Shown here: in pieces, positions 20,448 through 51,304 of the stretch
Layout: each line of letters starts with the position of its first letter
Position numbering within the stretch: the stretch's first letter is position 1
The notes under the pieces: generated by a model
What the model was told of the DNA's origin: nothing
The model's database searches: none
What the model saw: only the letters and a program-made list of their open reading frames with translations
NCBI GenBank assembly: GCA_044892525.1
Contig: CM097885.1
Span: forward strand, 9,984,001-10,048,000
DNA length: 64,000 nucleotides
Source of the DNA: Schmidtea polychroa
Taxonomy: Eukaryota
Reading direction: 5' to 3'
Program-made: the position numbers and the translations under genes

Positions 20448-20704
20448 TTACCGGTTCGCCACCATCACCCGTTTCAATAATTTTTTTTTCATATTTATGT
20501 TTAAAAATAAAATAATTAATAAAATAAATAAAATAAAATAAAATAAAATAAAAATAAATAAAATAAAATATAAATCTAAGATACCCACACTATTATTTTC
20601 AAATTTTTAAAAAAAAAAAACTAACCACAGTTAGGATTTGAACCGCTATCCATTTGAACCACGGTGTCGGTCTAGCCCACTGCGCTATCTAGGTTTGGAT
20701 TTTT
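20448..20704. repeat. Outer Polinton left TIR (probably truncated)
   Basis: Near-identical reverse complement of 51039-51304, apart from homopolymer and (AAAAT)n length differences. Confidence 0.92.
20609..20695 (-). ncRNA. tRNA-like Pol III unit 1 (in TIR)
   Basis: A box TAGCGCAGTGG (20687-20677), B box GGTTCAAATCC (20644-20634), T12 terminator; no complete cloverleaf. Confidence 0.7.
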
Positions 20705-20940
20705 CTCATTTTTTAGACTATAAATAATCGATTCAAGTTCTTTAACTCTTTCCTGTAATTGTTTCATTTTCTTCAATCTTATATCAGCAACATCTACAGC
20801 CTTCATATAAAAATGTCGATACTTTTCATTATCTACCATCAACTCTTTGATGTATTCTAATGGTTCTTCTCTCTTCTTTTCATTCTCTTATGTTTAACTT
20901 CATTCAATTCATTTCTCATTCTTTCTTTTAAATCATCCAT
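20672..20940 (-). pseudogene. Small coiled-coil protein of the outer element (~89 aa, one frameshift)
   Basis: MDDLKERMRNELNEVKH / ENEKKREEPLEYIKELM...LQERVKELESII...SAVG* when one base is restored near 20888. Confidence 0.55.
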
Positions 20941-23853: not shown

Positions 23854-25571
23854 AGTAGTAGGATTGGAGCTCCCCAGATCAGGAGCTCCCCGCATCACAT
23901 ATACCCCCTCCCCCCCCCCCCCCGGGAAAAAAAAATTTTTTTTTTTAATTTTTTGTTTTAATTAATTGGCCTGGCGGGCTCACACTTTTTTTCATCCCAA
24001 AAATTAATGTTCCCACCAACGGATTTTATTGGATGATACCTCATCTTAAAGCCCAGTCCAAGACCTTTCGAATGAGCTATAGGTATCATATATATCTTTA
24101 ATAGTTTTAATGTTATTAACAATTGATGACCACCATCTTTTCAACGTTAAATTATTATTATTTTCCAAAATATTATTAATTGGCCTGGCGGGCTCACACT
24201 TATTTTCATCCCAAAAATTAATGTTCCCACCAACAGATTTTATTGACCGATACCTCATCTTAAAGCCCAGTCCAAGACCTTTCGAATGAGCTATAGGTAT
24301 CATATATATCTTTAATAGTTTTAATGTTATTAACAATTGATGACCACCATCTTTTCAACGTTAAATTATTATTATTTTCCAAAATATTATTAATTGGCCT
24401 GGCGGGCTCACACTTTTTTTCATCCCAAAAATTAATGTTCCCACCAACAGATTTTATTGACCGATACCTCATCTTAAAGCCCAGTCCAAGACCTTTCGAA
24501 TGAGCTATAGGTATCATATATATCTTTAATAGTTTTAATGTTATTAACATTTGATGACCACCATCTTTTCAACGTTAAATTATTATTATTATTCAAAATA
24601 TTATTAATTGGCCGGGCGGGGACATACTTTTTCTCATCCCAAAAATTAATGTTGCCATTATCCGAATTTATTAATCGATAGCTTATTTTGAAGCGTAGTC
24701 TAAGACCTTTCAATTGAGCCATAGAACGTATCATCATCATTAACATCGGCAAAGTTATTAAAGTTTTACCGAGACCATTTTTCAAGGTCATTTATTTTTC
24801 AAAATATTATTTTCAAGGTCAAGGTCAAGGTCATTTATTTTTTCAAGGTCATTTATTTTTTCAAGGTCATTTATTTTTTCAAGGTCATATTTTAAAATTT
24901 AAATGTACAGAGTTCCCGACAACGATAATTATTCAACGATAGCTCATTTTAAAGCCCAATGCAAGACCTTTCGATTGATTCATAGAAGGTATCATCATCA
25001 TTATTATTGACAAAGTTATTAACAATTGATGACCACCATCTTTTCAACGTTAAATTATTATTATTTTCCAAAATATTATTAATTGGCCGGGAGGGCCCCT
25101 ACTCTTTTTCATCCCAAAAATTAATGTTCCCATTATCCGAATTTATTGGACGATACCTCATCTTAAAGCTCAGTCCAAGACCTTTCGAATGAGCCATAGA
25201 AGGTATCATCATCATTAATATTAACAAAGAGAATGACTCACCCAATGACTCACCCAACGATGTCTAATATTTTTAGAACGATGACTCATCAAGGTCATTC
25301 CCAAGGTCATATGACTCATCAAGGTCAAGGTCATTTTTTTTAAATTTAATTTTTTGTTTTAATTAAGTAATCTTTTTATTTTCAAGGTCATTTAATTTTC
25401 AAGGTCATTTAATTTTCAAGGTCATTTAATTTTCAAGGTCATTTAATTTTCAAGGTCATTTAATTTTTCAAGGTCATTTAATTTTCAAGGTCATTTACTT
25501 TTCAAGGTCATTTAATTTTTCAAGATCATTTATTAAAATAATTATTATTTTCTAAGTTTTTAGTTTCTAAG

Positions 25572-25622
<51 letters not shown>

Positions 25623-25822
25623 CATATATACACCGAGTCTATCCGACAAGATATTCTGTCCCCCTATGGGTACTGCTCACAAATGTACTACTCACATTCA
25701 ACAAGTCACAAATGTACTACTCACACTCAACAAGTCACATGGGTACTGTTCACAAAGCTACTGGTAAAAATATTCAAGACAAAACTTTCTAAATTCTAAA
25801 TATTATTCTTTAAATATACACT
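23854..25822. repeat. Inner Polinton left TIR with 214-bp tandem units and TCAAGGTCA arrays
   Basis: Reverse complement of 39179-40969, with one more 214-bp unit than the right TIR. Confidence 0.95.
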
Positions 25823-26179
25823 AAAATTTATTAACACATTCACATTCATCATCTCCACAGTTCATAACATTTTCAACAACATGATCTATACAATCCCTAT
25901 ATACACACGGTTCAGTATCCGTAAATTCCTCCATAGGTTCATCAATTTCTTGAATGCTTTCCTCATCATCTTGAGTGTTTTCTTCATCTGTTTCATCAAA
26001 TTCCGAATCTTCACTCTCTGCTACCCAGCCGATATTTAATGAGTTTGTAACAGATAATATGTCCTCAATTTTCACACCAGATATTTCTGCTAACTTTTCC
26101 AATAAAAAGTTTATTATAAATTCTAAATATTAAATAATTCGATAATTAACTAATCATATTAACCTTTTTCTGTAGTCAT
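25821..26179 (-). CDS. Small acidic protein, two exons (predicted intron 26123-26163)
   Basis: ATG ACT ACA GAA AAA G|GT...TTTAG|AA gives MTTEKEFIINFLLEKLAEISG, in frame with ORF 25821-26102. The donor context is conserved in the relic at ~1141. Confidence 0.7.
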
Positions 26180-26275
26180 TATTAGTATTTTAAAACTATA
26201 GTATATATTTGTTTATAGAAAATATAGAATATAAGCGAAAACAAATATGACTAAATACATTTATTAAATACAACA

Positions 26276-26695
26276 TTAAAATAACTGTGAAAGTCTAGCA
26301 GACATAATTTTCCAAATTGGAGAATACACATCATTATTATCAACTTTATATCCTTGGATTGTAATTGTTATATACCAATTTTCGTTTTCTTTGAAACTGA
26401 TTTCATCAAAGGAATCATAAAATTTTGCATATCGGTTGTTGAAAAATGCATTTTGATTGCATGATAGATTCGTATTCAACCTTTTGAAAACATCATCTAT
26501 GGTTTTAATATCTAACATTGAAAGCGTGCCGGTTAAGAATTGAAATTGGGTAGGAATTAGCTTGATCGGTGACACCAATTTCATATTGATTTCTTCTTTT
26601 AAAAAATACATCTTGTAGTTGTGGAACATTTGAACAGGTTGTACAAGTTCTGGAACTACTTTTGGTTTTTCAGTGCTTGAAATTTTCTTGGTCAT
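26276..26695 (-). CDS. Hypothetical accessory protein (139 aa)
   Basis: Open ORF with upstream GGTATAAAAAC; a homologous relic at 362-952 supports that it is coding. Confidence 0.8.
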   Translation of the reverse strand: MTKKISSTEKPKVVPELVQPVQMFHNYKMYFLKEEINMKLVSPIKLIPTQFQFLTGTLSMLDIKTIDDVFKRLNTNLSCNQNAFFNNRYAKFYDSFDEISFKENENWYITITIQGYKVDNNDVYSPIWKIMSARLSQLF

Positions 26696-26803
26696 TGTGA
26701 ATTATGATTAAAATGAAATGGTACAGGGTTTTTATACCTATGACTATTGTTTATCATCCAATCAGATTGCAGTATGTTTTTGTTTTAATTGAATGATAAA
26801 TAA

Positions 26804-27268
26804 TTAATTAAGTGATAATAAAAAATCTAAAAATTCTTTTCCTTCAATTATTGATTTAATTTCAGATATGATATTATCAACTATACTTTTGTAATCAATA
26901 TTTTTTATTCCAAGAATTACTATCTTACCGCTAGCGAATATATTTACACACATAGGGTTATATTTTATATATCTCAAAGCTGGAAATAATTCTGGTTCAT
27001 AAAAGCATGGTATTAATTTAGCTAATTTATTTAAATTACAAGAAAAACCTATATCGGAAGTTACGGTTATCGATTGTATTTCTAAATCATAAACATTATA
27101 TTCACTAGCTTTGATTATTTCCTTACACCCCATAATTCTACATTTACCAGTTTTGAAATATATTATTGGATATTTATTACTTCTATTGATAAGTTGTTGT
27201 GGTTTCCCTATTGGAAATATCATTTTTGATACATCAGTTTTTGCCCTGTAATTTATATTTGAAAGCAT
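26804..27268 (-). CDS. TATA-binding-protein (TBP)-like protein
   Basis: Two TBP repeats: IYFKTGKCRIMG and IQSITVT...NLNKLA...YEPELFPALRY...NIFASGKIVILG. Confidence 0.92.
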   Translation of the reverse strand: MLSNINYRAKTDVSKMIFPIGKPQQLINRSNKYPIIYFKTGKCRIMGCKEIIKASEYNVYDLEIQSITVTSDIGFSCNLNKLAKLIPCFYEPELFPALRYIKYNPMCVNIFASGKIVILGIKNIDYKSIVDNIISEIKSIIEGKEFLDFLLSLN

Positions 27269-27373
27269 TTTAATGAAATAATTTTAAAAACTTTGATATA
27301 TATAGGTATTTAAAAACAGAGTTCATTTAAATTATCAATATAAACAATAATTATATAGTTTAAATTTTAAAAA

Positions 27374-28012
27374 ATGGAATTACGAAATGATGCAGTATAC
27401 CAAATCGTTGGTCCAAGTGGTAGCGGGAAAACTTTATTTGTTTGTAAATTACTAAAATCAAATTTGTTTAAAACAAAATTCAACAATATTTATTGGCATA
27501 GGGGCGCCGACGAAGAACACGGATTGACGCAATCAAGTTTCTGTCAGTTGAAAAACATGAAAATAGTAAAGGGCTTTGATAAAAACTGGTCAAGTCGTTT
27601 GAAGAAAGATGATGTCATCATTATCGATGATTTGTATCAAGAAGCCAATAAAGAAAAGGACTTTAATAATTTATTCACAAAAATCAGCAGACATGTTGGT
27701 GTAACAGTTATTTTCATAACACAAAATCTATTTCATCAAGGTGGTGCACATCGAACACGTAATTTAAATGTACAATATTTAGTTATTTTCAAGAATCCTA
27801 GAGATGCAACTGTCATTGATTTTCTTGGACGACAAGCATACCCTAATAACCGTAATTTTCTTATCAGTGCATTTCAAGATGCCACGAAAATACCGCATGG
27901 GTATATATTTCTCGATTTCACACAACAATGCCCTGATGATATACGGGTAAAAACAGATATTTTCAACCCAAAAGGTGCCATGGTATATAAACAAAGTTCA
28001 AAACAAAGTTGA
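27374..28012 (+). CDS. Genome-packaging ATPase (A32/FtsK-like)
   Basis: Walker A GPSGSGKT, Walker B IIIDD, LFTKISRH, FITQNLF. Confidence 0.95.
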   Translation: MELRNDAVYQIVGPSGSGKTLFVCKLLKSNLFKTKFNNIYWHRGADEEHGLTQSSFCQLKNMKIVKGFDKNWSSRLKKDDVIIIDDLYQEANKEKDFNNLFTKISRHVGVTVIFITQNLFHQGGAHRTRNLNVQYLVIFKNPRDATVIDFLGRQAYPNNRNFLISAFQDATKIPHGYIFLDFTQQCPDDIRVKTDIFNPKGAMVYKQSSKQS

Positions 28013-28025
28013 AAACATATAAATC

Positions 28026-28520
28026 ATGTTTTCAAAAACAAGGATATCGGGTAAAAAACAACCAAAAGTTCCACCAACAACTAGTTATACTCCATCTAAA
28101 GATCTTATTACAGAAAATTTTCCTGCAATGAATCTTATTTCGAAAAATCCTAAACCTAAACCTAAAAGTAAAACCACTAAGAAAGTAAAAGTTGTTAAAA
28201 ATCATCGGAGTTTCCCGTTTTTCAATACATTGTTAAAGGCACCAAGTATGAAAAGAAACAGTATTTTGCAATCATTTCCAAATTATGTTGTCGATGATTT
28301 ACTCGATATTATACTTAAAGTAGTCAAAGGCAAGATTAAAATCAGTAAATCTAAAAAGCAATTATTGAGTAAACATAGGAAACCTTTGCTATCATTAGTA
28401 AATAATAAAAATCGTCAACAAATGAGAAAAATTATATATAAACAACAAGGGGGATTTATCGGTGCATTGATACCTTTAGCAATATCATTATTAGGTGGAA
28501 TAATAGGAAGTCGATCATAA
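28026..28520 (+). CDS. Basic virion core-like protein with a C-terminal hydrophobic/amphipathic helix
   Basis: Lys-rich; ends QQGG|FIGALIPLAISLLGGII, a GG protease-site-like motif typical of Polinton core proteins. Confidence 0.7.
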   Translation: MFSKTRISGKKQPKVPPTTSYTPSKDLITENFPAMNLISKNPKPKPKSKTTKKVKVVKNHRSFPFFNTLLKAPSMKRNSILQSFPNYVVDDLLDIILKVVKGKIKISKSKKQLLSKHRKPLLSLVNNKNRQQMRKIIYKQQGGFIGALIPLAISLLGGIIGSRS

Positions 28521-28523
28521 ACA

Positions 28524-28751
28524 ATGGGTGCTAATCCTTCATTACCAGACATTAAATTTAATATTAAATCTTCTTGTTGTAATGGAGAAGATTTGGACGA
28601 ACCCGGAAGACGAAGCCGGTTTTGGTGGAGTGGCAAAATTAAGGAAAAGAGTTCCGAATTCGAAAAAGGAAACACAGAAGTGGTTATCAGACCAGCTTGC
28701 GTACAGTTTGAACAAACCAATGCGGAAACGATTCCCAACAAGAGCATATAA
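28524..28751 (+). CDS. Putative overprinted myristoylated microprotein (75 aa)
   Basis: MGANPS (MGxxxS) plus a CC pair. First ATG after the upstream stop; overlaps the integrase 5' end in another frame. Confidence 0.4.
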   Translation: MGANPSLPDIKFNIKSSCCNGEDLDEPGRRSRFWWSGKIKEKSSEFEKGNTEVVIRPACVQFEQTNAETIPNKSI

Positions 28752-29640
28752 AACATATGGAATAAATGATTTATGGCAAATGGATTTGATGGAGATGATA
28801 CCCTATTCGAAAATTAACAATGGGTATAAATATATTTTAACATGTATTGATGTATTCAGTCGGTTTGCCCGAGCAATACCCGTCAAGGCAAAATCTGCAG
28901 ATGAAATGTCCAAAGCTGTTAATCATTTATTTAAAGATGGACATCCTAAAAACTTGCAAACTGATTTAGGTATTAATATTATTATTATTAATATTATTAT
29001 TATTATTATTTTAGGTAAAGAATTCTACAACAGTAAAGTCAAGCAAATCCTCAATAAATTGAAAATAAACCATTACTCAGTACATTCTCAATACAAAGCT
29101 GCTCATGTTGAAAGATTTAACCGAACTTTGAGAGATAGATTAAAGAAATTATTCGTGCATCAAGGTAATAAAAAATGGGTATTGGTTTTACCAAAAATAA
29201 TAACCAGTTATAATCACTCATCACATCAAGGACTGAGTGGATTAAGGCCGATTGATATCACGTCAAAAACAATCTATTCTAAAAAACCTGAAAAAATTAC
29301 AAAACCGAAATATAAAGTAGGTGACCATGTTAGAATTAGTAAAATTAGTGCATCACCATTTATTAAAAATTTCGATACAAATTGGAGTGATGAAGTCTTT
29401 GTAATTTCAAAAATAAATACTAAACAGAATCCTGTAATGTATGTCATCAAAGATAATGATAACAATATTGTACAAGGAAAATTTTATGAGCAGGAATTAC
29501 AAGTTATTCCTCCCCCAAAAGTATTTAGAATTCAGAAGATTTTGAAAACTAAAAATAAAGGCAAGGATAAACAATACTATGTCAAATGGCATGGTTATCA
29601 AAACCCATCATGGATATCAGAAAAGGATCTAGTAAAGTGA
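28582..29640 (+). CDS. Retroviral-type integrase with C-terminal chromodomain; 45-bp intron 28970-29014
   Basis: WQMDL, QTDLG^KEF after intron removal, VERFNRTL, YNHS.H, PKYKVGDHVRISK, YYVKWHGY..PSWI. Confidence 0.95.
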   Translation: MEKIWTNPEDEAGFGGVAKLRKRVPNSKKETQKWLSDQLAYSLNKPMRKRFPTRAYKTYGINDLWQMDLMEMIPYSKINNGYKYILTCIDVFSRFARAIPVKAKSADEMSKAVNHLFKDGHPKNLQTDLGINIIIINIIIIIILGKEFYNSKVKQILNKLKINHYSVHSQYKAAHVERFNRTLRDRLKKLFVHQGNKKWVLVLPKIITSYNHSSHQGLSGLRPIDITSKTIYSKKPEKITKPKYKVGDHVRISKISASPFIKNFDTNWSDEVFVISKINTKQNPVMYVIKDNDNNIVQGKFYEQELQVIPPPKVFRIQKILKTKNKGKDKQYYVKWHGYQNPSWISEKDLVK

Positions 29641-30653
29641 ATTTTTATACTATTTTACCAAGCAATAGTTGCCCGCTTATTCATCCAGATAATCAAGCCA
29701 GTAAATTCATGGTCAATCTCCAGAATCCGATTTCTTTAAATGGGGACTGGGAAGTTGCACTGCAAGATTTTACATTCGTGTACAATACATTCCCATTTTA
29801 TAGTCAATGTAAGATTGATTTCAAAAGGAATGCTATGAAAACATGTAGTGGTATCTTTATTATCAGTAATTATGATAAAACATATCATATTCCGAATCAA
29901 ATATTAGATCAGCACTGCTCTATGTTTTACAAGGATGGATTAAATATCAGTTGTGATTTTAAACCATTTACAATAACATTCGAATATATTGAAGATGCCA
30001 GACGAATGGGTTGCAATAAGTTGAAAAATGAAGTTATGGAAACAGAATATTTATTACGCTTTGATCTATTTGAAGCAAACAGTGTAATGAGAGAAGAAAT
30101 CAAAATATCAGTGTCGTATAATAATGAAGTTGAAGAATCATTCACCTTCGCTGACGAATTATATATTGATAAACTTGATGTGTTACTTAAATATTTAAAG
30201 TATAATTGTTCACACATATTTAAAAGTTTGGACATTGTGAAAGATTTGTTATTTACCTTCAGTTTGAATGATGACATTTGCGAAGTTACATTTGATAAAA
30301 ATTTGACAAATACACTTGGATTAGAGAAGCAGCAATATCGGGAAAAATCGGCTGGTATACGTAAACCAAGAATACTTGAACATCATCAACAAATGTTCAT
30401 ATATACTAATATTATTGAGCCTATAATAGTTGGTGATTCCAGTGTTCCTCTATTGAAATCGGTGTGGATTGGAAAATATGAACATGATGAAGTTGTCAAT
30501 ATAAATATAGATAATCCCATGTATTTACCAATTTCAAGCTCATGTATAAACAATATAGAAATAAATATTCGTGACGATAGTGGAAAACTTATAAACTTCC
30601 CAAAAGACTCAAAAACTCATTTGACACTACATTTTCGTAAAGTAGATGGCTAA
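29586..30653 (+). CDS. Minor capsid (penton-like) protein; start codon uncertain
   Basis: FYTILPSNS..HPDN, WEVAL, MFIYTNIIEP.IVGD...PLL, IEINIRDDSG, LTLHFR. Confidence 0.9.
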   Translation: MAWLSKPIMDIRKGSSKVNFYTILPSNSCPLIHPDNQASKFMVNLQNPISLNGDWEVALQDFTFVYNTFPFYSQCKIDFKRNAMKTCSGIFIISNYDKTYHIPNQILDQHCSMFYKDGLNISCDFKPFTITFEYIEDARRMGCNKLKNEVMETEYLLRFDLFEANSVMREEIKISVSYNNEVEESFTFADELYIDKLDVLLKYLKYNCSHIFKSLDIVKDLLFTFSLNDDICEVTFDKNLTNTLGLEKQQYREKSAGIRKPRILEHHQQMFIYTNIIEPIIVGDSSVPLLKSVWIGKYEHDEVVNINIDNPMYLPISSSCINNIEINIRDDSGKLINFPKDSKTHLTLHFRKVDG

Positions 30654-31008
30654 TTCCGATATTATTAGTATGTATAGTGATAGCCAATCTGGTGGTGAAT
30701 TACCATATTTTATTGGTAAACAGTATGGATCAGGTTGGTTAAAAACAATAGGGAGATTTGCACTTCCCATTCTTAAACGTATTGGTAGTTTTGGCATGAA
30801 AACTGCAAAAGATGTGATTATGAATGAACAGAAAATATTACCATCCCTAAAAACAAATGCTTTAGCTGAGTTAGGGAAGGTTCTACCTGGAGTTGCTGGT
30901 ATGTTTCAAAAAGATACACCTCCAGTCCCAGCTCCAAAACGTAAAGGGCATGGAATATCGCGTATAAACAAACGAATGAAAGGACATGGAACTATATTTG
31001 CAAAATGA
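30646..31008 (+). CDS. Small basic core-protein precursor
   Basis: QSGG.LPYF.G.QYGSG..RFALPILK and repeated KGHG motifs; lies directly upstream of the MCP. Confidence 0.75.
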   Translation: MANSDIISMYSDSQSGGELPYFIGKQYGSGWLKTIGRFALPILKRIGSFGMKTAKDVIMNEQKILPSLKTNALAELGKVLPGVAGMFQKDTPPVPAPKRKGHGISRINKRMKGHGTIFAK

Positions 31009-32228
31009 TTTGTGGTAAATCCGAATTATGTATATTTGATAGACCGTCGCCCCAGGCAGTAATAGAATTTGGTGCCTTTGAGGAAGTTTTTCCTATGAAT
31101 TCAATTACTGATAGTAGAAATGATATCGAGTTTTATATTAATGGTTCGCAAACTGAATATTTAGATTTGAACGATACTTTATTGACTGTTCAGATCAAGG
31201 TTGTAGATAAAGATAGAAAGGTTTTGGATGCCAATGCTGATGTATTACCAAACAATTTCATGTTTCATACTCTGTTTAAAGATGCAGTGTTGGGATTTAA
31301 TAATATCAAGATTGAGGGTGGAAATAATACATTCATTCACAAGGCTTTGATAGAAACTATTTTAAATTACAATTCAGATACTAAAAATACCTGTCTTACA
31401 CCTATGGGTTATGCAGCAGCAGATGATGAAAGAAAAAAGTGGGTTAAAGGCTCAAAATCATTCACTATGTGCTCATCATTACAACTTGATTTTATGGATC
31501 AACCGAAATATTTACTACCGGGAGTTAATATACATATTAGACTGAAAAGATCTGATTCTGCATTGTCTCTTACTAGTGCAACTGGTGCACCAATATGTCA
31601 ATTAGTTGATGCAAAATTATTGGTGAGAAGAGTTCGAGTAGACCCGTCAGTATTAGCTGGTCATCAATTGGGGCTTAATTCAAAACATGCAATTTATCCT
31701 TTAAAAACAAAGGAAATTGTACAATTTGCTATTGCTAAAGGTGCTTCATCATTCTATAAAGAACAAATATTTGGTGACAGAAGAATGCCTAATTTTATTC
31801 TGGTAACATTTCAAAGTGAAACGCAATATAATGGATCGTATACTGCTTCCAGCTCAATTTTCAAAAATTTTGGTGTTACTTCATTGACTTTATCGAAAAA
31901 TACTGATTATAGAGAAACATATACTCAAGATTTCGAGAATGATAATTACTGTGCGACATATATGCAGAGTATTGTTAGAAATCTGGGTTATTTAGATAAA
32001 AACTTGAATTGCGGAATAACTCTTGAAGAATTTAAAAGCAAATACCCATTTTTCACATTTGTTCTAGCTCCCGATTTTGATTTAAATCAGAGTCAATTAC
32101 CACAAAACGGGAATTTACGACTGGATATAAAGTTTGCAAAGGCCATTACTGAACCAGTACATGTTATAATATATGGAGTATTTGAAAATGAAGTTCAAAT
32201 TACTGCAAATAGAACCGTGCTAGTATAA
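31005..32228 (+). CDS. Major capsid protein (hexon-like double jelly-roll)
   Basis: KSEL.IF..P..Q, IEFYI.G...EYLDL, QPKYLLPGV, L.VRRV, GNLRLDIKF. Confidence 0.93.
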   Translation: MICGKSELCIFDRPSPQAVIEFGAFEEVFPMNSITDSRNDIEFYINGSQTEYLDLNDTLLTVQIKVVDKDRKVLDANADVLPNNFMFHTLFKDAVLGFNNIKIEGGNNTFIHKALIETILNYNSDTKNTCLTPMGYAAADDERKKWVKGSKSFTMCSSLQLDFMDQPKYLLPGVNIHIRLKRSDSALSLTSATGAPICQLVDAKLLVRRVRVDPSVLAGHQLGLNSKHAIYPLKTKEIVQFAIAKGASSFYKEQIFGDRRMPNFILVTFQSETQYNGSYTASSSIFKNFGVTSLTLSKNTDYRETYTQDFENDNYCATYMQSIVRNLGYLDKNLNCGITLEEFKSKYPFFTFVLAPDFDLNQSQLPQNGNLRLDIKFAKAITEPVHVIIYGVFENEVQITANRTVLV

Positions 32229-32640
32229 ATGTATACAGAAACACCAAAAAGTTGTCATGGAGTAAGTTTTTCAATACTGTTTAATTTATTAAAGTAGTTC
32301 TGTTCAGGTCAATAGAATTGGAAAACAGATATTGGGAAATGAATTTGTAGGAGTTTTTCCTCTCGATAAAATCCCATATTTGAGCAATAATCAAGCCATA
32401 ATCGTCAATACTCAATCGTCTCATCTTGGTGGAGAACATTGGATTGCTATATATGTGAAACCTAGTAATATATTCGTGTTCGATCCTATGGGTTTCTATT
32501 ACCCTGCTTTGTTGGTATCAAAACTACAAACAATGGGGAAACCTATTGTATATAATAAAACAATGTTTCAAAATCCCTTGACACAAACATGCGGTCAACA
32601 TTGTTTAGCTTGGTTGTTGTATAAAAAATTTGATGTTTAA
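32229..32640 (+). CDS. Adenain-like cysteine protease; predicted intron 32262-32307
   Basis: FVGVFP.D, GEHWIA, FDPMG, QNP..QTCGQHC. ATG exon 32229-32261 with a GTAAGT donor joins in frame at TTCAG|32308. Confidence 0.88.
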
Positions 32641-32657
32641 TAAATGTATCCTTTCCT

Positions 32658-33135
<478 letters not shown>

Positions 33136-33218
33136 AATATCCAAATAAAGACTACACAATCATTGTGCATGCACAAAGTCATGACTAACAAAGATGTGTA
33201 ATCCCATTTGATACCATT

Positions 33219-33304
33219 TGATTGGCTGATAGAGGAAAAAGTATTCAGGAATGTGTCTTAATTCTGATTGGTTGAGACATGGAAATATTCATGTTCTATA
33301 TAAA
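33219..33304 (+). promoter_or_regulatory. Pol II promoter: two inverted CCAAT boxes plus a TATA box
   Basis: TGATTGG at ~33219 and ~33265, TATATAAA at 33297-33304, ATG at 33365. Confidence 0.65.
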
Positions 33305-33364
33305 CATTGACAAATTCCAAATTCATCACAATTTATCAAAATTTTCAATTTCTGATTTTTCAAA

Positions 33365-33908
33365 ATGTCTAACAATAACAACAACATATTAAGAAGTCTA
33401 TTGACTACCGGTAATTTTATTATTTATTTATTTATTATATTTTATTCTTTATTTTTTAGATGTGTTCGATTGGTATCAAGTTACTGAGGACGAAAGAATT
33501 TTGAATGTTGATAGGATTTTCGGTAAATTTAAATATTTTATTTTTTATGAAATTATTATTTTATTTAGAACCTATTATAATTAGCGACGATGATGATGTC
33601 GTATTTATTGGGCAAACTAATGCCCCAGTTTCCTGTAATGTTTTTAATGAACAAAGTAAATTTATTTTATTTTAGTATATTATTTTTTAAAAATCATTTT
33701 AGTGTTTAATGTTGACATGGACGCTGAAATCGATGTTCCAATTAATAATGATTCTATTGAGGAGATGAATAATGCACTGACTTCTATCGATGAGCTGAAT
33801 TATGTGGATAATACAATCGAGGAGCTTGTTAATGTGGATAATGCCCTCACTTCTATTGAGGAGGTTGCTGATAATGAATCAGATTCCGACATGGAATCAC
33901 GATGTTAG
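33365..33908 (+). CDS. Four-exon acidic protein (~133 aa) with SIM-like motifs
   Basis: Exons 33365-33410, 33460-33522, 33569-33655, 33703-33908. Three GT..AG phase-1 introns of 49, 46 and 47 bp give a continuous frame. Confidence 0.8.
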
Positions 33909-34062
33909 TATTTATTTATTTTTATATATTTATTTTTTTTTTAAAAACCTTGTAAATTTCTTAAATACTTTTTAAACATTTTCTTTAAAAACTTATTTAT
34001 AAAAACTTATTATGAAAATGAAGAAAATATTATGTTGAAATTGAAAATGTTATGTTGACTAA

Positions 34063-34166
34063 ATGATGAAAATATTATGATGAAGAAAATGATGAAAATA
34101 TTATGATGAAGAAAATGATGAAAATATTATGATGAAGAAAATGATGAAAATATTATGATGAAGAAA
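34063..34166. repeat. 4 x 26-bp tandem repeat
   Basis: ATGATGAAAATATTATGATGAAGAAA x4. Confidence 0.9.
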
Positions 34167-34292
34167 ATGTTTAAAAAGTATTTAAGAAACAATAGTTTTA
34201 AAATATTCCTTGTAGTTTGCAATGAGCAACTACATTAGTTAAAATAATAATAATAATAATAATAATATTAAAAATAGTAATAAAAATATATC

Positions 34293-34683
34293 TTGTAGTC
34301 TGCAGTGAGCATGCAGCTACATATCTCTTTTATCATGATTGCCCCAATAAATGTAGTCTGCAGTGAGCATGCAGCTACATCAAACTAATTATTTATTACG
34401 TAATACATACCCTTTATTAAATGTGTCTAAATGCAGCTGCGTCAAACTAAATATTTATTACGTAATACATACCCTTTATTAAATGTGTCTAAATGCAGCT
34501 GCGTCAAACTAAATATTTATTACGTAATACATACCCTTTATTAAATGTGTCTAAATGCAGCTGCAACAAACTATTTATTACGTAATAATTAACCCTTATT
34601 AAATATAGTCTGCATGCAGCTGCATCAACTATTTATTATGTAATAATTATAATCTTTAAATGTAATCTGCATGCAGCTGCATC
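34293..34683. repeat. Array of ~56-62-bp units with palindromes TATTACGTAATA and GCAGCTGC
   Basis: 62-bp period at 34381, 34443, 34505, plus degenerate units on both sides. Confidence 0.88.
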
Positions 34684-34869
34684 AATAATGATAATAATGA
34701 TAATAATAATAATAATAATAATAAAATCACACATTTATAGTTTACAAGACTTTATTAATATAAATACAATTTCATGATTAATATTAATTGATAAATATAA
34801 TTAACAGGCAAATTATATCCACATTACTGCCAGGCTTCAACTGGTCACTCAAATTTATGTCACAAAGTG

Positions 34870-37800
34870 ATGAAAAAATATTATGGTCGTAAATTTTATG
34901 GCATCAAGTACTACATATGCCCAATATGCGAGACTTCCCATAGCATTAAATATTTAGAGTTTTACAGTATACATAAATCCCATTTAAATCAGTTCTCTTT
35001 AAATAAAAAGGATTTATTTAACAAATTGCGAAATACCGCAAAACCTATAATTAAAACTAATGTAAATAATACAAAACCTGTAAATAATAATACAAAACCT
35101 GTAAATAATAATACAAAACCTGTAAATAATATTACAAAACCTGTAATTAATAATAATACAAAACCTGTAAATAATATTACAAAACCTGTAAATAATAATA
35201 CAAAACATGTAAATAATATTACAAAACCTGTAAATAATAATAATACAAAACCTGTAAATAATATTACAAAACCTGTAAATAATAATACAAAACATGTAAA
35301 TAATATTACAAAACCTCTAATTAATAATGTTATTAATGTAAATAATAATTTAAAAAGACCTGCTGTTAGTATTGGGTCTGATGCTCCCTCTAAAATTAAT
35401 AAATTAGAACAAATAACTGTGGTTAATAATATTCAAGTAGGCGGTTCAGTCGATATTGACGATGAACCTGAAATCGAAATTGATTTTAAGGGGGTTCGAA
35501 AGAATCTAAGATTTAATGTAGAAAAGGATAACATCATTCAAATATCCATAACCGATAAAATCGTTAATAAGTTAAAACATGAAATAATCAGAATGGGGTC
35601 GGTGAAAATACAATTCTCTGTATTGATTCAATTTGAAAAAGATGGTGAAATTAAAGATAATTTCTTCTCGAATAGGGCAGAGGCTTTTTCAGATAGTTTT
35701 CTAAGTGAGGGGGTTCACAAATTAAATAATAAAATAGAAAAATTCACATATTTGGGTAGTGGATGGCGGGTTGTTAAAATCAAAGAAATAGATTTTATAT
35801 TAACAAAATTTACACATATGAATAGGCTAGCTGGACATAGTTACATCCCCACCCCATCATCTTTAAAATCTAAAAATGCAATAGTAAATGTTAAAAACAC
35901 CGATGATATGTGCTTTATATATAGTATTTTAGCACTTTTAAAACGTAATGTCGTACATATAAATAGAAATAGAGTTAGTTCCTATCAAAATTATCTTGAC
36001 GAGTTAAATTTTGACCCCATTTCAGACTGTCCAATGAAACTATGTGATATTCCTAAATTCGAGATGAAAAATAAGGATTTAAATTTAGCAATAAATGTTT
36101 TAACTTATAGAACAACCCCTGCTAAGCCTTTTGAAAATATAGTTGACGATAATTATATTCCACATCATCCTCAATTAGATATTATTCACCGATCTAAGGT
36201 TATAGGTGGTGAACCCATATATTTACTTTTATTGGAAGACGGTGATAATTTCCATTATACTGCAGTTTTTAACTTACAAAGACTAATGAATTGTCGCTCT
36301 AGCAGTGAATGTGACGTTAGACTTCAAGTAAACTGGTGCCCCCATTGTCTTAACGGATTTAGACATAAAAATGCATTTGATATTCATGTCGCCTTATGCA
36401 TTAAAAACCAGATAGGTACTACTTTATACACGCTACCCAATGATAAAAATTTAATTTTTCAAAATTATGCGAAAACCATAACCCCACCATTCGTGATATA
36501 TGCAGACTTTGAATCAATTTTACCGGGGGATATAATACACCATCAAAAGCATTTGCCAATAACAGCAGGTTTATTATTAATAAATAATTATAATAACTCT
36601 AAATTTTATTATGAGTTTGTTGGGGATGATTGCATCTTATCTTTCTTGCGTAAGGTGGAGGAAATTGCTATGACAATTGTCCTGCCATATTACGAAATTA
36701 ATGGGAAAAAGCCCATGCAAACCTTGTCTTTCACTGAAGAGCGGGCCTTTCGTGATTCCAGAACCTGCTACCTTTGTAAAAAATTCATTAAGAATAGAGT
36801 TAGGGATCATTGTCACTTTTCAGGTAAGTATCTTGGTGCTGCCTGTAGGAAATGTAATGTTTCTCGACGAATTCAGAAACAGTTACCTGTGGTTTTTCAC
36901 AATTTGAGGGGGTATGATCTTCATCATATTTTGAAGTATGGTTTGAATAATTTTCCTTCTTGGGAATTAAATATTATTCCGACCACTACTGAGAAATTCA
37001 TCTCTCTTATCGCGTACATTAACAAATTGTCTGTTCGTTTTATTGACAGCATGCAGTTTGTTAATTCATCTTTAGCAAAAGCAGTTAAGACTCTTTCCGA
37101 TCTGCCTTTAACTTCTTCTGTTTTCGATGGCGCAATTGTTCGAGCCAAAGGTATCTTTCCTTATGACTTTGCCACATCTCTTGAGGTTCTGGAATCGACT
37201 CTTGAATTGCCTCCTATTTGGGATTCTGTGTCTAATGATGAATATGCATTAGCCCAAGTTATTTGGACTCAGCAAAACTGCAACAACATGTTAGATTACA
37301 TGTTAATCTACCTTAAATTAGACGTGTTTCTCCTCGCAGACTATTTTCAACAATTCCGTGAAAAGGCCATTGCTTACAATGGTCTTGAGCCTCTTAATTT
37401 CTATGGCATTCCCGGTATGTCTTGGGCCTCTGCGCTTATGACATTAACGGAACCCATTGAACTTCTGCAGGACATGGAAATGTTTAATTTCTATGAAGGA
37501 GGGATACGGGGTGGGTTAACATTTGTTAACAAACATTATGTTGCAAGTTCTGAAGACACAGAACTCTTGTATATTGATATTAATAACTTGTATGGTTGGG
37601 CCTTAAGCCAAAATCTGCCTTATGCTGACTTTGTTTGGGTGTATGATGATCTTGATTCTGTCTTGAATGAATGTATGAATGCTGATATCGATAACCTTCC
37701 ATATGGCTATACTATGGAGGTAGATATCGATATACCTGTTTGTTTGCATGACTTTCTGAATGATTTTCCTCTTGCTCCGGAAAAGATGTGCCCGCCAAAT

Positions 37801-38949
37801 TCTAAAGTTGAGAAGCTGATGCTCACGCATTGGCCGAAGAAGAACCATGTTCTTCATTGGCGACTTCTCAAGTTGTATATAGAATTGGGGGCTATTATTA
37901 AAAATGTACATAGAGCAATCAAATTTAAGCATGCACCCATTTTCAAATCTTACATAGACAAAAACACTAATTTGAGAGCCAATTCTACATGCGAATTATA
38001 TAGGGATCTATACAAATTATTTAATAATAGTCTGTATGGGAAATCCGTAGAAAACCTTAAAAAACGGATGAATTTGAGGCTATGCAATTCAGCTGAAAAG
38101 ATGATTGTATATGCTTCAAAGCCGACTTTCAAGAAATCTATCAAAATTGATGATGACTTGATTGCTGCACATCTATATAAGGATTCTATATGTTTAGACA
38201 GGCCTAGTTACATTGGCCAAACGGTGCTAGACCTGTCTAAACTGAGGATGTACCAGTTACAGTATAAAGAATTGGCTAAATATAGAAATGAATTTAAATG
38301 TGAGATAAATATCGTTGCCGGCGATACTGACTCCTTTTTTCTTGAGGTTAGGCACTGTAAGCTTGACATTCGTGACAATCTTTTAGACACTTCCAACTAT
38401 GACCCTGCACATCCCTTATACTCTAGAAACCTTGATTCTGTGATAGGTAAATTTAAAGATGAAAGTAAAGGTCTAGGGTATAAGGAATGGGTTTTCTTAA
38501 GACCCAAGTGCTATAGTTTGTTAGGGGCTAAAGATCATTTAAAAGCAAAAGGAGTCAGGTTAATAGGTACAGAAATTAGGCACGATTCATATTTAGAATG
38601 CTACAATAACAACGTAGTATTTTCTGTGCCACAAAGTAGGATAGGGACGCGGAACCATCAATTGTACACATTTAAAAACAATAAAATCGCGTTGACAAAC
38701 AATGACGACAAGCGGTTTTGGGTGGGGAAAAATTCCAGTCTCGCATTTGGTCATTATTTAGCACTAGATGATATAAATGATGATCAAATATTTGAAGAAG
38801 TTGGGCCACTATTCGGAAGATTAAGTCCAGATTTTGTTTCTGGTGATGAGGAAGTGGGTCCACTTTTCAATGGTTTAAGTCCAGATTTCGATTCTGGTGA
38901 TGATCCTAATGATAAAAGAGATATAGATGATATTTTATTGTCAGACTAA
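34870..38949 (+). CDS. Protein-primed family B DNA polymerase (pPolB) of the inner element; frame open from 34801, possibly spliced
   Basis: YADFES, FHNLRGYD, FIDS, KGIFPY, YIDINNLYG, KLFNNSLYGK, GDTDS, KCY, AKGV; endonuclease-VII-like CxxC..DHCH..CxxCN insert. Confidence 0.97.
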   Translation: MKKYYGRKFYGIKYYICPICETSHSIKYLEFYSIHKSHLNQFSLNKKDLFNKLRNTAKPIIKTNVNNTKPVNNNTKPVNNNTKPVNNITKPVINNNTKPVNNITKPVNNNTKHVNNITKPVNNNNTKPVNNITKPVNNNTKHVNNITKPLINNVINVNNNLKRPAVSIGSDAPSKINKLEQITVVNNIQVGGSVDIDDEPEIEIDFKGVRKNLRFNVEKDNIIQISITDKIVNKLKHEIIRMGSVKIQFSVLIQFEKDGEIKDNFFSNRAEAFSDSFLSEGVHKLNNKIEKFTYLGSGWRVVKIKEIDFILTKFTHMNRLAGHSYIPTPSSLKSKNAIVNVKNTDDMCFIYSILALLKRNVVHINRNRVSSYQNYLDELNFDPISDCPMKLCDIPKFEMKNKDLNLAINVLTYRTTPAKPFENIVDDNYIPHHPQLDIIHRSKVIGGEPIYLLLLEDGDNFHYTAVFNLQRLMNCRSSSECDVRLQVNWCPHCLNGFRHKNAFDIHVALCIKNQIGTTLYTLPNDKNLIFQNYAKTITPPFVIYADFESILPGDIIHHQKHLPITAGLLLINNYNNSKFYYEFVGDDCILSFLRKVEEIAMTIVLPYYEINGKKPMQTLSFTEERAFRDSRTCYLCKKFIKNRVRDHCHFSGKYLGAACRKCNVSRRIQKQLPVVFHNLRGYDLHHILKYGLNNFPSWELNIIPTTTEKFISLIAYINKLSVRFIDSMQFVNSSLAKAVKTLSDLPLTSSVFDGAIVRAKGIFPYDFATSLEVLESTLELPPIWDSVSNDEYALAQVIWTQQNCNNMLDYMLIYLKLDVFLLADYFQQFREKAIAYNGLEPLNFYGIPGMSWASALMTLTEPIELLQDMEMFNFYEGGIRGGLTFVNKHYVASSEDTELLYIDINNLYGWALSQNLPYADFVWVYDDLDSVLNECMNADIDNLPYGYTMEVDIDIPVCLHDFLNDFPLAPEKMCPPNSKVEKLMLTHWPKKNHVLHWRLLKLYIELGAIIKNVHRAIKFKHAPIFKSYIDKNTNLRANSTCELYRDLYKLFNNSLYGKSVENLKKRMNLRLCNSAEKMIVYASKPTFKKSIKIDDDLIAAHLYKDSICLDRPSYIGQTVLDLSKLRMYQLQYKELAKYRNEFKCEINIVAGDTDSFFLEVRHCKLDIRDNLLDTSNYDPAHPLYSRNLDSVIGKFKDESKGLGYKEWVFLRPKCYSLLGAKDHLKAKGVRLIGTEIRHDSYLECYNNNVVFSVPQSRIGTRNHQLYTFKNNKIALTNNDDKRFWVGKNSSLAFGHYLALDDINDDQIFEEVGPLFGRLSPDFVSGDEEVGPLFNGLSPDFDSGDDPNDKRDIDDILLSD

Positions 38950-39178
38950 ACTGTGATAAATGTTAATATATCTTTAATAAAACGTTTCTTCTACATTGTT
39001 GTATTATCTAAAATTTTTATTGAAAACTTGTTATAGTTTTCACATTTCTTACAAATGTTAAACACTTGTATAAATATATTTATTAATATTGATAAAGTTT
39101 TTATAAATCATGTTTAACTATTGAAAGAAATTTTTATTTGAAATGTATGTATGAGCTCACCACTACATATATGAGTTG

Positions 39179-39350
39179 AGTGTACATTTAAAGTATAATA
39201 TTTAGAATTTAGAAAGTTTTACCTTGAATATTTTTACCAGTACCTTTGTGAACAATAACCATGTGACTTGTTGAGTGTGAGTAGTACCCTTGCTAGCAAT
39301 ACCCATAGGGAGACAGAATATCTTGTCGGATAGATTATATATATATATAT

Positions 39351-39444
<94 letters not shown>

Positions 39445-40969
39445 CTTAGAAACTAAAAACTTAGAAAATAATAATTATTTTAATAAATGATCTTGAAAAA
39501 TTAAATGACCTTGAAAAGTAAATGACCTTGAAAATTAAATGACCTTGAAAAATTAAATGACCTTGAAAATTAAATGAGCTTGAAAATTAAATGACCTTGA
39601 AAATTAAATGACCTTGAAAATTAAATGACCTTGAAAATAAAAAGATTACTTAATTAAAACAAAAAATTAAATTAAAAAAAAAATGACCTTGACCTTGATG
39701 AGTCATATGACCTTGGGAATGACCTTGATGAGTCATCGTTCTAAAAATATTAGACATCGTTGGGTGAGTCATTGGGTGAGTCATTCTCTTTGTTAATATT
39801 AATGATGATGATACCTTCTATGGCTCATTCGAAAGGTCTTGGACTGAGCTTTAAGATGAGGTATCGTCCAATAAATTCGGATAATGGGAACATTAATTTT
39901 TGGGATGAAAAAGAGTAGGGGCCCTCCCGGCCAATTAATAATATTTTGGAAAATAATAATAATTTAACGTTGAAAAGATGGTGGTCATCAATTGTTAATA
40001 ACTTTGTCAATAATAATGATGATGATACCTTCTATGAATCAATCGAAAGGTCTTGCATTGGGCTTTAAAATGAGCTATCGTTGAATAATTATCGTTGTCG
40101 GGAACTCTGTACATTTAAATTTTAAAATATGACCTTGAAAAAATAAATGACCTTGAAAAAATAAATGACCTTGAAAAAATAAATGACCTTGAAAAAATAA
40201 ATGACCTTGACCTTGACCTTGAAAATAATATTTTGAAAAATAAATGACCTTGAAAAATGGTCTCGGTAAAACTTTAATAACTTTGCCGATGTTAATGATG
40301 ATGATACCTTCTATGGCTCAATTGAAAGGTCTTAGACTACGCTTCAAAATAAGCTATCGATTAATAAATTCGGATAATGGCAACATTAATTTTTGGGATG
40401 AGAAAAAGTATGTCCCCGCCCGGCCAATTAATAATATTTTGAATAATAATAATAATTTAACGTTGAAAAGATGGTGGTCATCAATTGTTAATAACATTAA
40501 AACTATTAAAGATATATATGATACCTATAGCTCATTCGAAAGGTCTTGGACTGGGCTTTAAGATGAGGTATCGGTCAATAAAATCTGTTGGTGGGAACAT
40601 TAATTTTTGGGATGAAAAAAAGTGTGAGCCCGCCAGGCCAATTAATAATATTTTGGAAAATAATAATAATTTAACGTTGAAAAGATGGTGGTCATCAATT
40701 GTTAATAACATTAAAACTATTAAAGATATATATGATACCTATAGCTCATTCGAAAGGTCTTGGACTGGGCTTTAAGATGAGGTATCATCCAATAAAATCC
40801 GTTGGTGGGAACATTAATTTTTGGGATGAAAAAAAGTGTGAGCCCGCCAGGCCAATTAATTAAAACAAAAAATTAAAAAAAAAAATTTTTTTTTCCCGGG
40901 GGGGGGGGGGGGGAGGGGGTATATGTGATGCGGGGAGCTCCTGATCTGGGGAGCTCCAATCCTACTACT
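39179..40969. repeat. Inner Polinton right TIR
   Basis: Reverse complement of the left TIR; ends CCTACTACT. Confidence 0.95.
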
Positions 40970-50949: not shown

Positions 50950-51038
50950 TTTTAGAAAAAAATTTTTTATTGGATATCCTGTTTTGATTTTTTATGTTTT
51001 TATATTTATTTTCATAATGTGACAGTATAAAAAATAAC

Positions 51039-51304
51039 AAAAATCCAAACCTAGATAGCGCAGTGGGCTAGACCGACACCGTGGTTCAAATGGATAGCGG
51101 TTCAAATCCTAACTGTGGTTAGTTTTTTTTTTTTTAAAATTTGAAAATAATAGTGTGGGTATCTTAGATTTATATTTTATTTTATTTATTTTTATTTTAT
51201 TTTATTTTATTTTATTTATTTTATTTATTTTATTAATTATTTTATTTTTAAACATAAATATGAAAAAAAAATTATTGAAACGGGTGATGGTGGCGAACCG
51301 GTAA
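51039..51304. repeat. Outer Polinton right TIR (part shared with the left TIR)
   Basis: Reverse complement of 20448-20704. Confidence 0.92.
51047..51135 (+). ncRNA. tRNA-like Pol III unit 1, right-TIR copy
   Basis: A box 51056-51066, B box 51099-51109, T13 at 51123-51135; TATAAAAA about 20 bp upstream. Confidence 0.7.

Follow-up and report, generated by a model that had tools for sequence, protein, structure and literature searches.

The DNA-binding face of the TATA-binding protein (TBP) is among the most conserved surfaces of eukaryotes and archaea. In animals, the host TBP paralogue TRF2 (TBPL1) has lost intercalating phenylalanines and serves non-TATA promoters; among viruses, many with large DNA genomes have a polymerase of their own. 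The beta- and gammaherpesviruses encode a viral TBP (vTBP; ORF24 of Kaposi's sarcoma-associated herpesvirus, BcRF1 of Epstein-Barr virus, UL87 of human cytomegalovirus) that serves late promoters carrying a TATT box and, according to the portion of the source used here, makes direct contact with the C-terminal domain of RNA polymerase II (Pol II) and acts together with at least six viral activators (PMC7498053). A gene label 'TBP' for a MELD-virus genome map appears in figure legends of Starrett et al. (PMC8502044, bioRxiv 10.1101/697771), which deal with elements from a section on non-animal datasets; the parts of that work covered here give no structure, selection or promoter analysis, and one of its supplements contains neither 'TBP' nor 'TATA'. 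Searches of the open full-text literature on Polintons, with subscription papers and Repbase reports outside their scope, found no short TBP family and no associated box, only that legend label. Here we address the timing of virion genes in Polintons without an RNA polymerase, using a 64,000-nt stretch of the Schmidtea polychroa genome (assembly GCA_044892525.1, contig CM097885.1, positions 9,984,001 to 10,048,000, forward strand), which we call the window and to which all coordinates refer. One Polinton in it encodes a shortened TBP-like protein, mini-TBP, whose DNA-reading residues are extensively replaced, and a conserved word, TATAAACAA, precedes the packaging and putative structural genes on the opposite strand.

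The mini-TBP protein and its DNA-reading face

26804..27268, minus strand: mini-TBP gene, an open reading frame (ORF) of 154 aa whose repeat 1 is without helices H1 and H2
Rebuilt DNA face of mini-TBP: N6, P23, R44, M46, S66, T68, R99, C107, N109; stirrup acids E91/E93 retained

A first-pass annotation of this DNA had described a TBP-like protein of 154 aa with a shortened first repeat, an intact C-terminal repeat and three of the four intercalating phenylalanines. The ORF is open, and the Pfam TBP family (PF00352) matches residues 62-135, that is, the C-terminal repeat only, at 56.6 bits against a cut-off of 22.9. All 35 PDB sequences that match mini-TBP are TBP or TBP fusions (best E value 9e-17). 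In an AlphaFold model built from a 76-row alignment (predicted local distance difference test, pLDDT, 95.7; predicted template modelling score 0.85), residues 1-145 align to TBP with a Z score of 12.5 and a root mean square deviation of 2.5 Å over 141-143 residues; the 38 top structural matches are all TBP chains (Z 10.4-12.6), the best non-TBP structure reaching Z 6.3. The TBP fold on which the annotation depended is therefore adopted in the model. Every strand of repeat 1 is present there, but no helix of four or more residues occurs before position 79, so that H1 and H2 of this repeat are gone; the alignment has gaps at yeast TBP positions 133-145. Repeat 2 is whole in the model. F38, F95 and F111 are present, as described, the fourth intercalating position being Pro23, and the YEPELF stirrup lies at residues 90-95. 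Two family profiles found no second convincing TBP-like match in the window (next best E value 0.04). Mini-TBP belongs to the TBP family but lacks two of the features that define canonical TBP: complete helices in both repeats, and four phenylalanines with a hydrophobic minor-groove face.

To follow these residues across the family, 144 rows (the 76-row alignment A1 and 68 representatives chosen by eye as near full length) were mapped on canonical TBP, in what we take to be yeast TBP numbering. N69 (133 rows), F116 (144), F190 (143) and F207 (144) are retained, as are, in sequence, the stirrup acids E186 (134) and E188 (143). The residues that are replaced and fixed are, in repeat 1, F99P (140), V122R (143), T124M (143) and V71N (119) and, in repeat 2, N159S/T (143), V161T/S (142), V203C (117), L205N (144) and I194R (113), whereas L114 stays aliphatic (Ile 63, Leu 48, Val 31). 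The C-terminal repeat thus keeps its fold and its stirrup, while its DNA face is altered, since five DNA-facing or neighbouring residues are replaced in mini-TBP (N159S, V161T, I194R, V203C, L205N).

Assuming an offset of 42, residues Leu163, Val119 and Val29 of Arabidopsis TBP would be L205, V161 and V71 of yeast TBP, all three of which are polar in the mini-TBP family. F99, the phenylalanine lost, is presumably a member of the pair that acts at the 7/8 step of the TATA box. In the excerpts of the literature that we draw on, the three Arabidopsis residues are reported to police TATA positions 2, 4 and 5 (PMC13566119), the Phe pairs of TBP to insert at steps 1/2 and 7/8 (PMC1935006), and a C or G at position 7 to need Hoogsteen pairing to avoid Leu72 (PMC13566119, citing Patikoglou 1999).

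The predicted complex of mini-TBP with a TFIIB core, taken from a close relative and 92% identical to the host exon, scored 0.51, whereas the highest-scoring of three controls had 0.00; the runs agree in at least 95% of contacts, with a partner pLDDT of at least 83. Of 78 solved pairs 51 attained the mark applied, as did 2 of 108 mismatched ones, and scores of 0.60 or less were seen in only 5 of the 78 solved pairs and in all 4 passing mismatches. The score lends weak support to the predicted interaction; because TBP-TFIIB structures have already been solved, the pass may be recall.

A conserved box upstream of packaging and putative structural genes

The gene block opposite mini-TBP runs in the order ATPase, ORF164, ORF75, integrase, putative minor capsid, ORF120, putative major capsid and protease, with PolB beyond. 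The names capsid, protease and PolB are our assignments from gene order and characteristic motifs.

27269..27373, no strand: divergent spacer between mini-TBP and ATPase, 105 bp, 11% GC to the ATPase ATG
Within 27269..27373: canonical-type TATATATA, 36 nt before the mini-TBP start
27339..27347, plus strand: box TATAAACAA before the ATPase (-35), non-coding
27374..28012, plus strand: A32-like packaging ATPase (Pfam Pox_A32 above cut-off)
27986..27994, plus strand: box before ORF164 (-40), within the 3' end of the ATPase gene
28437..28445, plus strand: box before ORF75 (-87), within ORF164; broken in one of seven lineages
28516..28524, plus strand: box CATAAACAA before the integrase (-66)
28582..29640, plus strand: rve integrase with chromodomain (Pfam above cut-off)
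29566..29574, plus strand: box GATAAACAA ahead of the putative minor capsid gene (-20, counted from the first ATG; a poor spacing fit)
29586..32228, plus strand: putative minor capsid (355 aa), ORF120 and putative major capsid (407 aa); names assigned by position, size and characteristic motifs
30545..30553, plus strand: box before ORF120 (-101), within the minor capsid gene, as ATA AAC codons
30963..30971, plus strand: box before the putative major capsid (-42), within ORF120, as ATA AAC codons
32224..32231, plus strand: variant TATAAATG (TATAAACC in two lineages), 32-34 nt ahead of the short first exon inferred for the protease
34870..38949, plus strand: putative protein-primed PolB, no box upstream

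The spacer had been annotated as a divergent, TATA-rich stretch of 105 bp. Its length and the head-to-head arrangement hold, but what is conserved is no generic TATA run: spacer alignment yielded one conserved word, TATAAACAA, pointing at the ATPase, in 19 of 21 divergent spacers and 33-41 nt ahead of the ATPase start in the copies measured. A count of generic TATAWAW was rejected as the spacer signal, as that motif is missing toward the ATPase in 3 of the 21 spacers and its count is inflated by TA microsatellites.

Within 110 nt upstream of all seven consecutive starts from the ATPase to the putative major capsid we found (T)ATAAACAA; the 7-mer of the box is present in 3.7% of random 110-nt windows, and seven boxes stand against 0.65 expected under a Markov model. 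ATAAACAA precedes none of the 10 starts of a second, TBP-less Polinton in the window, and neither mini-TBP nor PolB, whose 4.1-kb coding sequence has no box against 1.1 expected. Over seven lineages, ATAAACAA ranks top among all 65,536 8-mers, with 6-8 occurrences per lineage; the coding strand has 50 of them and the template strand 0. Two box sites that lie in coding sequence are spelled ATA AAC in seven of seven lineages, while among control columns none of 41 other invariant Asn is all AAC and 2 of 52 Ile are all ATA; because of this difference, the constraint at the two sites is, as judged by sequence comparison, one on DNA, acting against codon preference. Three lineages that carry an additional small ORF also carry one more box, 34-38 nt ahead of the next start, and the inferred first exon of the protease is preceded at 32-34 nt by TATAAATG or TATAAACC in six of six lineages. 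The protease itself seems to be spliced in the six lineages examined, with a first exon of 5 nt (ATG and two bases) followed by a GTAAG intron (window 32258-32296). Three presumed-RNA contig sets and one unlabelled set were discarded as evidence of transcription, genes and spacers being covered alike.

A search of genome contigs for distant homologues returned L092 and L093, the latter rejected as a chance match of 21 residues. L092 (1-3352) is a 3.4-kb Polinton-like contig binned in a bacterial assembly, though probably not bacterial DNA. Its ATPase is 32% identical, and it also has an ORF164-like gene and, in the same head-to-head layout, a divergent TBP gene. Its TBP has two full repeats, retains F99 and V122, and falls outside the short mini-TBP family in a quick tree. 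Canonical boxes, TATAAAAG, stand at -35 and -43, and ATAAACAA does not occur on that strand. Though one case only, L092 may serve as a natural control, in which a full TBP goes with canonical boxes.

The element, its copies and its relatives

23854..40969, no strand: whole inner Polinton, 17,116 bp, AGTAGT ends, 6-bp target-site duplication TGATGT
26276..26762, minus strand: ORF139, no family found; host-type promoter with CCAAT box and canonical TATAAAAA at -41

The element that carries mini-TBP has the hallmarks of a Polinton, namely terminal inverted repeats (about 1.7 kb, 96-98% identical), AGT-type ends, a 6-bp target-site duplication, a size in the range of 15-20 kb, an rve integrase and a packaging ATPase. 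It is inserted within the PLA2-integrase gene of an unrelated, TBP-less Polinton, and this interrupted outer element has neither a TBP-like gene nor the box. The Pfam scan of the inner PolB core and capsid ORFs gave no significant match, but by tblastn the inner PolB (25-29%) and protease (33%) resemble their outer counterparts.

The genome holds 4,144 candidate mini-TBP copies; the best 150, a biased sample because they were chosen as best-scoring, are unbroken and 99-100% identical, and a distant query recovered other mini-TBP subfamilies in the same genome. Nineteen of 20 loci fetched carry mini-TBP in Polinton context, 18 of them head-to-head with the ATPase, at identities down to 55-62%; the remaining locus (L057) had no Polinton match. 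When copies were chosen by their ATPase, mini-TBP lay within 1.5 kb in 58 of 60 and further off in one more, making 59 of 60; the last (L101, flank L134) had no mini-TBP, nor any other element gene in the 10 kb beyond. The ratio of nonsynonymous to synonymous substitution rates (dN/dS) of mini-TBP is 0.12-0.27 between subfamilies (15 of 19 comparisons, with dS near saturation) and 0.40-0.71 inside the youngest subfamily (4 of 19, on 3-4 synonymous differences), compared with 0.04-0.07 for the ATPase and 0.06-0.20 for the capsid.

Outside this genome, 97 of 118 database candidates are mini-TBP relatives, mostly of 144-165 aa; 75 were aligned and 22, mostly partial or long, were left out. A profile search returned 59 family representatives at E values up to 1e-30, and among the matches listed the family grades into forms that retain part of the helices. 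In a quick unrooted tree, 58 family rows fall on one side of a branch (Shimodaira-Hasegawa-like approximate likelihood ratio test, SH-aLRT, 100) that separates them from 19 reference rows, which comprise host, eukaryotic, archaeal, viral and unknown TBPs, with few from large DNA viruses and no labelled TRF2. The family thus appears to be a broad clade separate from host TBP. The Atlas search with mini-TBP returned generic TBP clusters only, the phage collection gave no match, and the viral contigs contained one canonical giant-virus TBP but no match to the capsid, L092 TBP or ATPase queries. Neutral decay of a recent host capture absent from sister elements, which the first-pass annotation had named as an outcome that would undo its proposal, is not what the copies, the substitution ratios or the tree show: sister elements carry the gene, the family stands apart in the quick tree from the host TBPs and the few large-DNA-virus TBPs sampled, and mini-TBP is real and under purifying selection.

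Several features of the elements are recorded here in their own right. In loci L044 and L047-L049 the core genes are mostly 87-97% identical to those of the window while mini-TBP is just 56-58% identical, and this disparity suggests that the left arm is exchanged between subfamilies. In L050, the second element of L052, and L053, PolB and the ATPase's first half are joined and the integrase-to-protease block is missing, yet mini-TBP and the left arm are retained. ORF139 (26276-26695, minus strand) is under purifying selection (dN/dS 0.12-0.29) and switches arms among subfamilies; Pfam and Atlas searches gave no match to it, and CCAAT and canonical TATA precede it and its homologues in the window, L043, L051, L055 and L060. 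CCAAT boxes and TATATAAA also lie ahead of an acidic ORF, apparently with several exons, that is located between protease and PolB (33267-33908) and is possibly an early regulatory gene. The inverted repeats of the inner Polinton (23961-25257 and 39760-40941) contain 214-nt tandem units and 17-nt repeats, and within the integrase an ATT-rich in-frame stretch between TDLG and KEF (28963-29020) looks like a small intron or a microsatellite insertion. The outer Polinton spans 20505-51238, with inverted repeats at 20505-20719 and 51024-51238, and its integrase is fused to a PLA2 domain. Several TBP paralogues are present in the host, along with an expanded complement of TFIIB/Brf-like genes that includes tandem arrays on C1 and C3 (L032-L037, L124-L133).

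Proposed mechanism, alternatives and known systems

We hypothesize that mini-TBP is a TBP of altered specificity that activates late genes by way of host TFIIB, an explanation that we consider reasonably probable. Host TFIID would read mini-TBP and the left-arm genes from ordinary TATA boxes, some with CCAAT. Mini-TBP would then bind TATAAACAA, a box that cellular TBP should accommodate poorly because of the C at position 7; we infer this binding because the minor-groove residues are replaced and the Phe of the 7/8 step is lost. The retained E-P-E-L-F stirrup would recruit host TFIIB and hence Pol II. Repeat-1 helices bind TFIIA, Brf1, TAF1 and Mot1, and their loss would remove that surface, leaving a Pol II-directed factor under less host control. 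The packaging, integrase and capsid genes would come on only after mini-TBP had been made. We incline, by a little, to the broader view that a widespread Polinton lineage independently evolved a minimal promoter-selectivity factor, a DNA saddle with a TFIIB handle, re-tooled to read TATAAACAA.

A number of observations weigh against this hypothesis. L114, the residue said to clash at position 7, is unchanged in kind. The 7-mer is not enriched window-wide (46 against 39.8 expected), so that its placement alone stands out; three of the coding sites (ATPase, ORF164, integrase) would arise from codon usage alone with a probability of about 0.6 each, and two copies of the box also precede left-arm ORFs. 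Box-to-start distances vary between 20 and 101 nt, the minor-capsid box is only 20 nt away from the first ATG and is followed by an out-of-frame ATG at +25, and the first ATG at least 25 nt past the box opens a long frame in 32 of 50 cases (29% at random). In four of six lineages the protease has TATAAATG. Being related, the seven lineages are not independent, and the co-variation of box and protein rests on one genome and L092.

It is unlikely, but well within reason, that the box is instead a core promoter element for host TBP or a paralogue, or a host Forkhead-type site, and that mini-TBP does something else or merely boosts these promoters. ATAAACA fits what we take to be the Fox consensus; the presumed Fox optimum GTAAACA, however, is not substituted for it (8 coding, 3 template), and the box is strictly one-stranded and mostly 33-42 nt ahead of starts. 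The host has TBP paralogues to draw on, two of the boxes overlap canonical TATATAAA, and cellular TBP is able to bind a C7 box by way of a Hoogsteen pair; such a pair, in the words of the excerpt cited, 'does not preclude complex formation' (PMC13566119). A host reader would nevertheless leave unexplained why C7 is held against codon preference and why the DNA face is rebuilt and fixed. Somewhat harder to credit is a decoy or repressor that sequesters TFIIB, or occupies boxes or host TATA unproductively, and so quiets copies or host genes. The retained stirrup, the loss of repeat-1 helices and of one Phe, and the weak TFIIB complex score would suit such a role, and thousands of candidate copies in one genome would reward self-restraint; but a pure TFIIB sponge needs no invariant new residues over its whole DNA face, a repressor needs no TFIIB stirrup, and the boxes stand at promoter-like spacing before each virion gene. 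Of the two functions that the first-pass annotation had left side by side, the late-gene factor gains a candidate target, TATAAACAA, before packaging and structural genes and in keeping with the rebuilt DNA face, whereas the decoy explains neither.

We regard as very improbable a role of mini-TBP in binding AT-rich DNA for replication ends, packaging or integration targeting, with the motif an unrelated poly(A)-type or translation signal. Most boxes do lie near the 3' ends of upstream genes, and TATAAA resembles what we take to be a poly(A) hexamer variant; yet the best-conserved box precedes the first gene of the block, where no upstream gene exists on that strand, other boxes lie inside coding sequence, and the TFIIB stirrup is conserved. 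A recent host capture in neutral decay we consider next to impossible: the ratios of 0.40-0.71 in the youngest subfamily would permit it, but those of 0.12-0.27 in the 15 between-subfamily comparisons, the presence of the gene beside 59 of 60 ATPase-chosen copies, the 97 database relatives and the single clade apart from host TBP all speak against it.

If the altered-specificity hypothesis is correct, the pairing of factor and box would point to a regulated, helper-independent late phase in the nucleus, marked by transcripts that start about 30 nt after the box, and elements of 17 kb would have their own early-to-late cascade on host Pol II. A family that lacks two helices and has polar residues fixed in the DNA face would also show how far TATA recognition can be re-programmed, and would provide a natural orthogonal TBP-promoter pair.

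Compared with cellular TBP (PF00352; eukaryotic and archaeal), mini-TBP shares the saddle fold, three of four phenylalanines, the EPELF stirrup and the whole of repeat 2. It is, however, about 30 residues shorter, is without H1 and H2 of repeat 1, has Pro at F99, falls in a separate clade in the quick tree, and shows fixed replacements at eight or more DNA-face or neighbouring positions. TRF2/TBPL1 resembles it in the loss of intercalating Phe but is a host gene product that has kept both repeats and TFIIA binding. The TBPs of large DNA viruses (Nucleocytoviricota) are likewise virus-encoded TBP folds, but have two repeats or are longer and come from large genomes, and the few sampled fall outside the mini-TBP clade in the quick unrooted tree. 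Starrett et al. had already labelled a TBP-like gene in a Polinton-like virus, as known here from figure legends alone. In the portion of the herpesvirus literature used here, the vTBP system resembles the one proposed here in that a virus with no RNA polymerase of its own codes for a TBP-like protein and has late genes with a non-canonical TATA variant. Nevertheless, vTBPs have about 580-1000 aa, including a Pol II-binding N-terminal domain, whereas the 154 aa of mini-TBP lie all within the TBP fold with no evident extra domain, the TFIIB stirrup is retained, and the box is TATAAACAA in place of TATT. Mini-TBP and its box are therefore best regarded as analogous to vTBP-TATT but not as a member of that system; if our hypothesis holds, they would parallel it by another route, through TFIIB.
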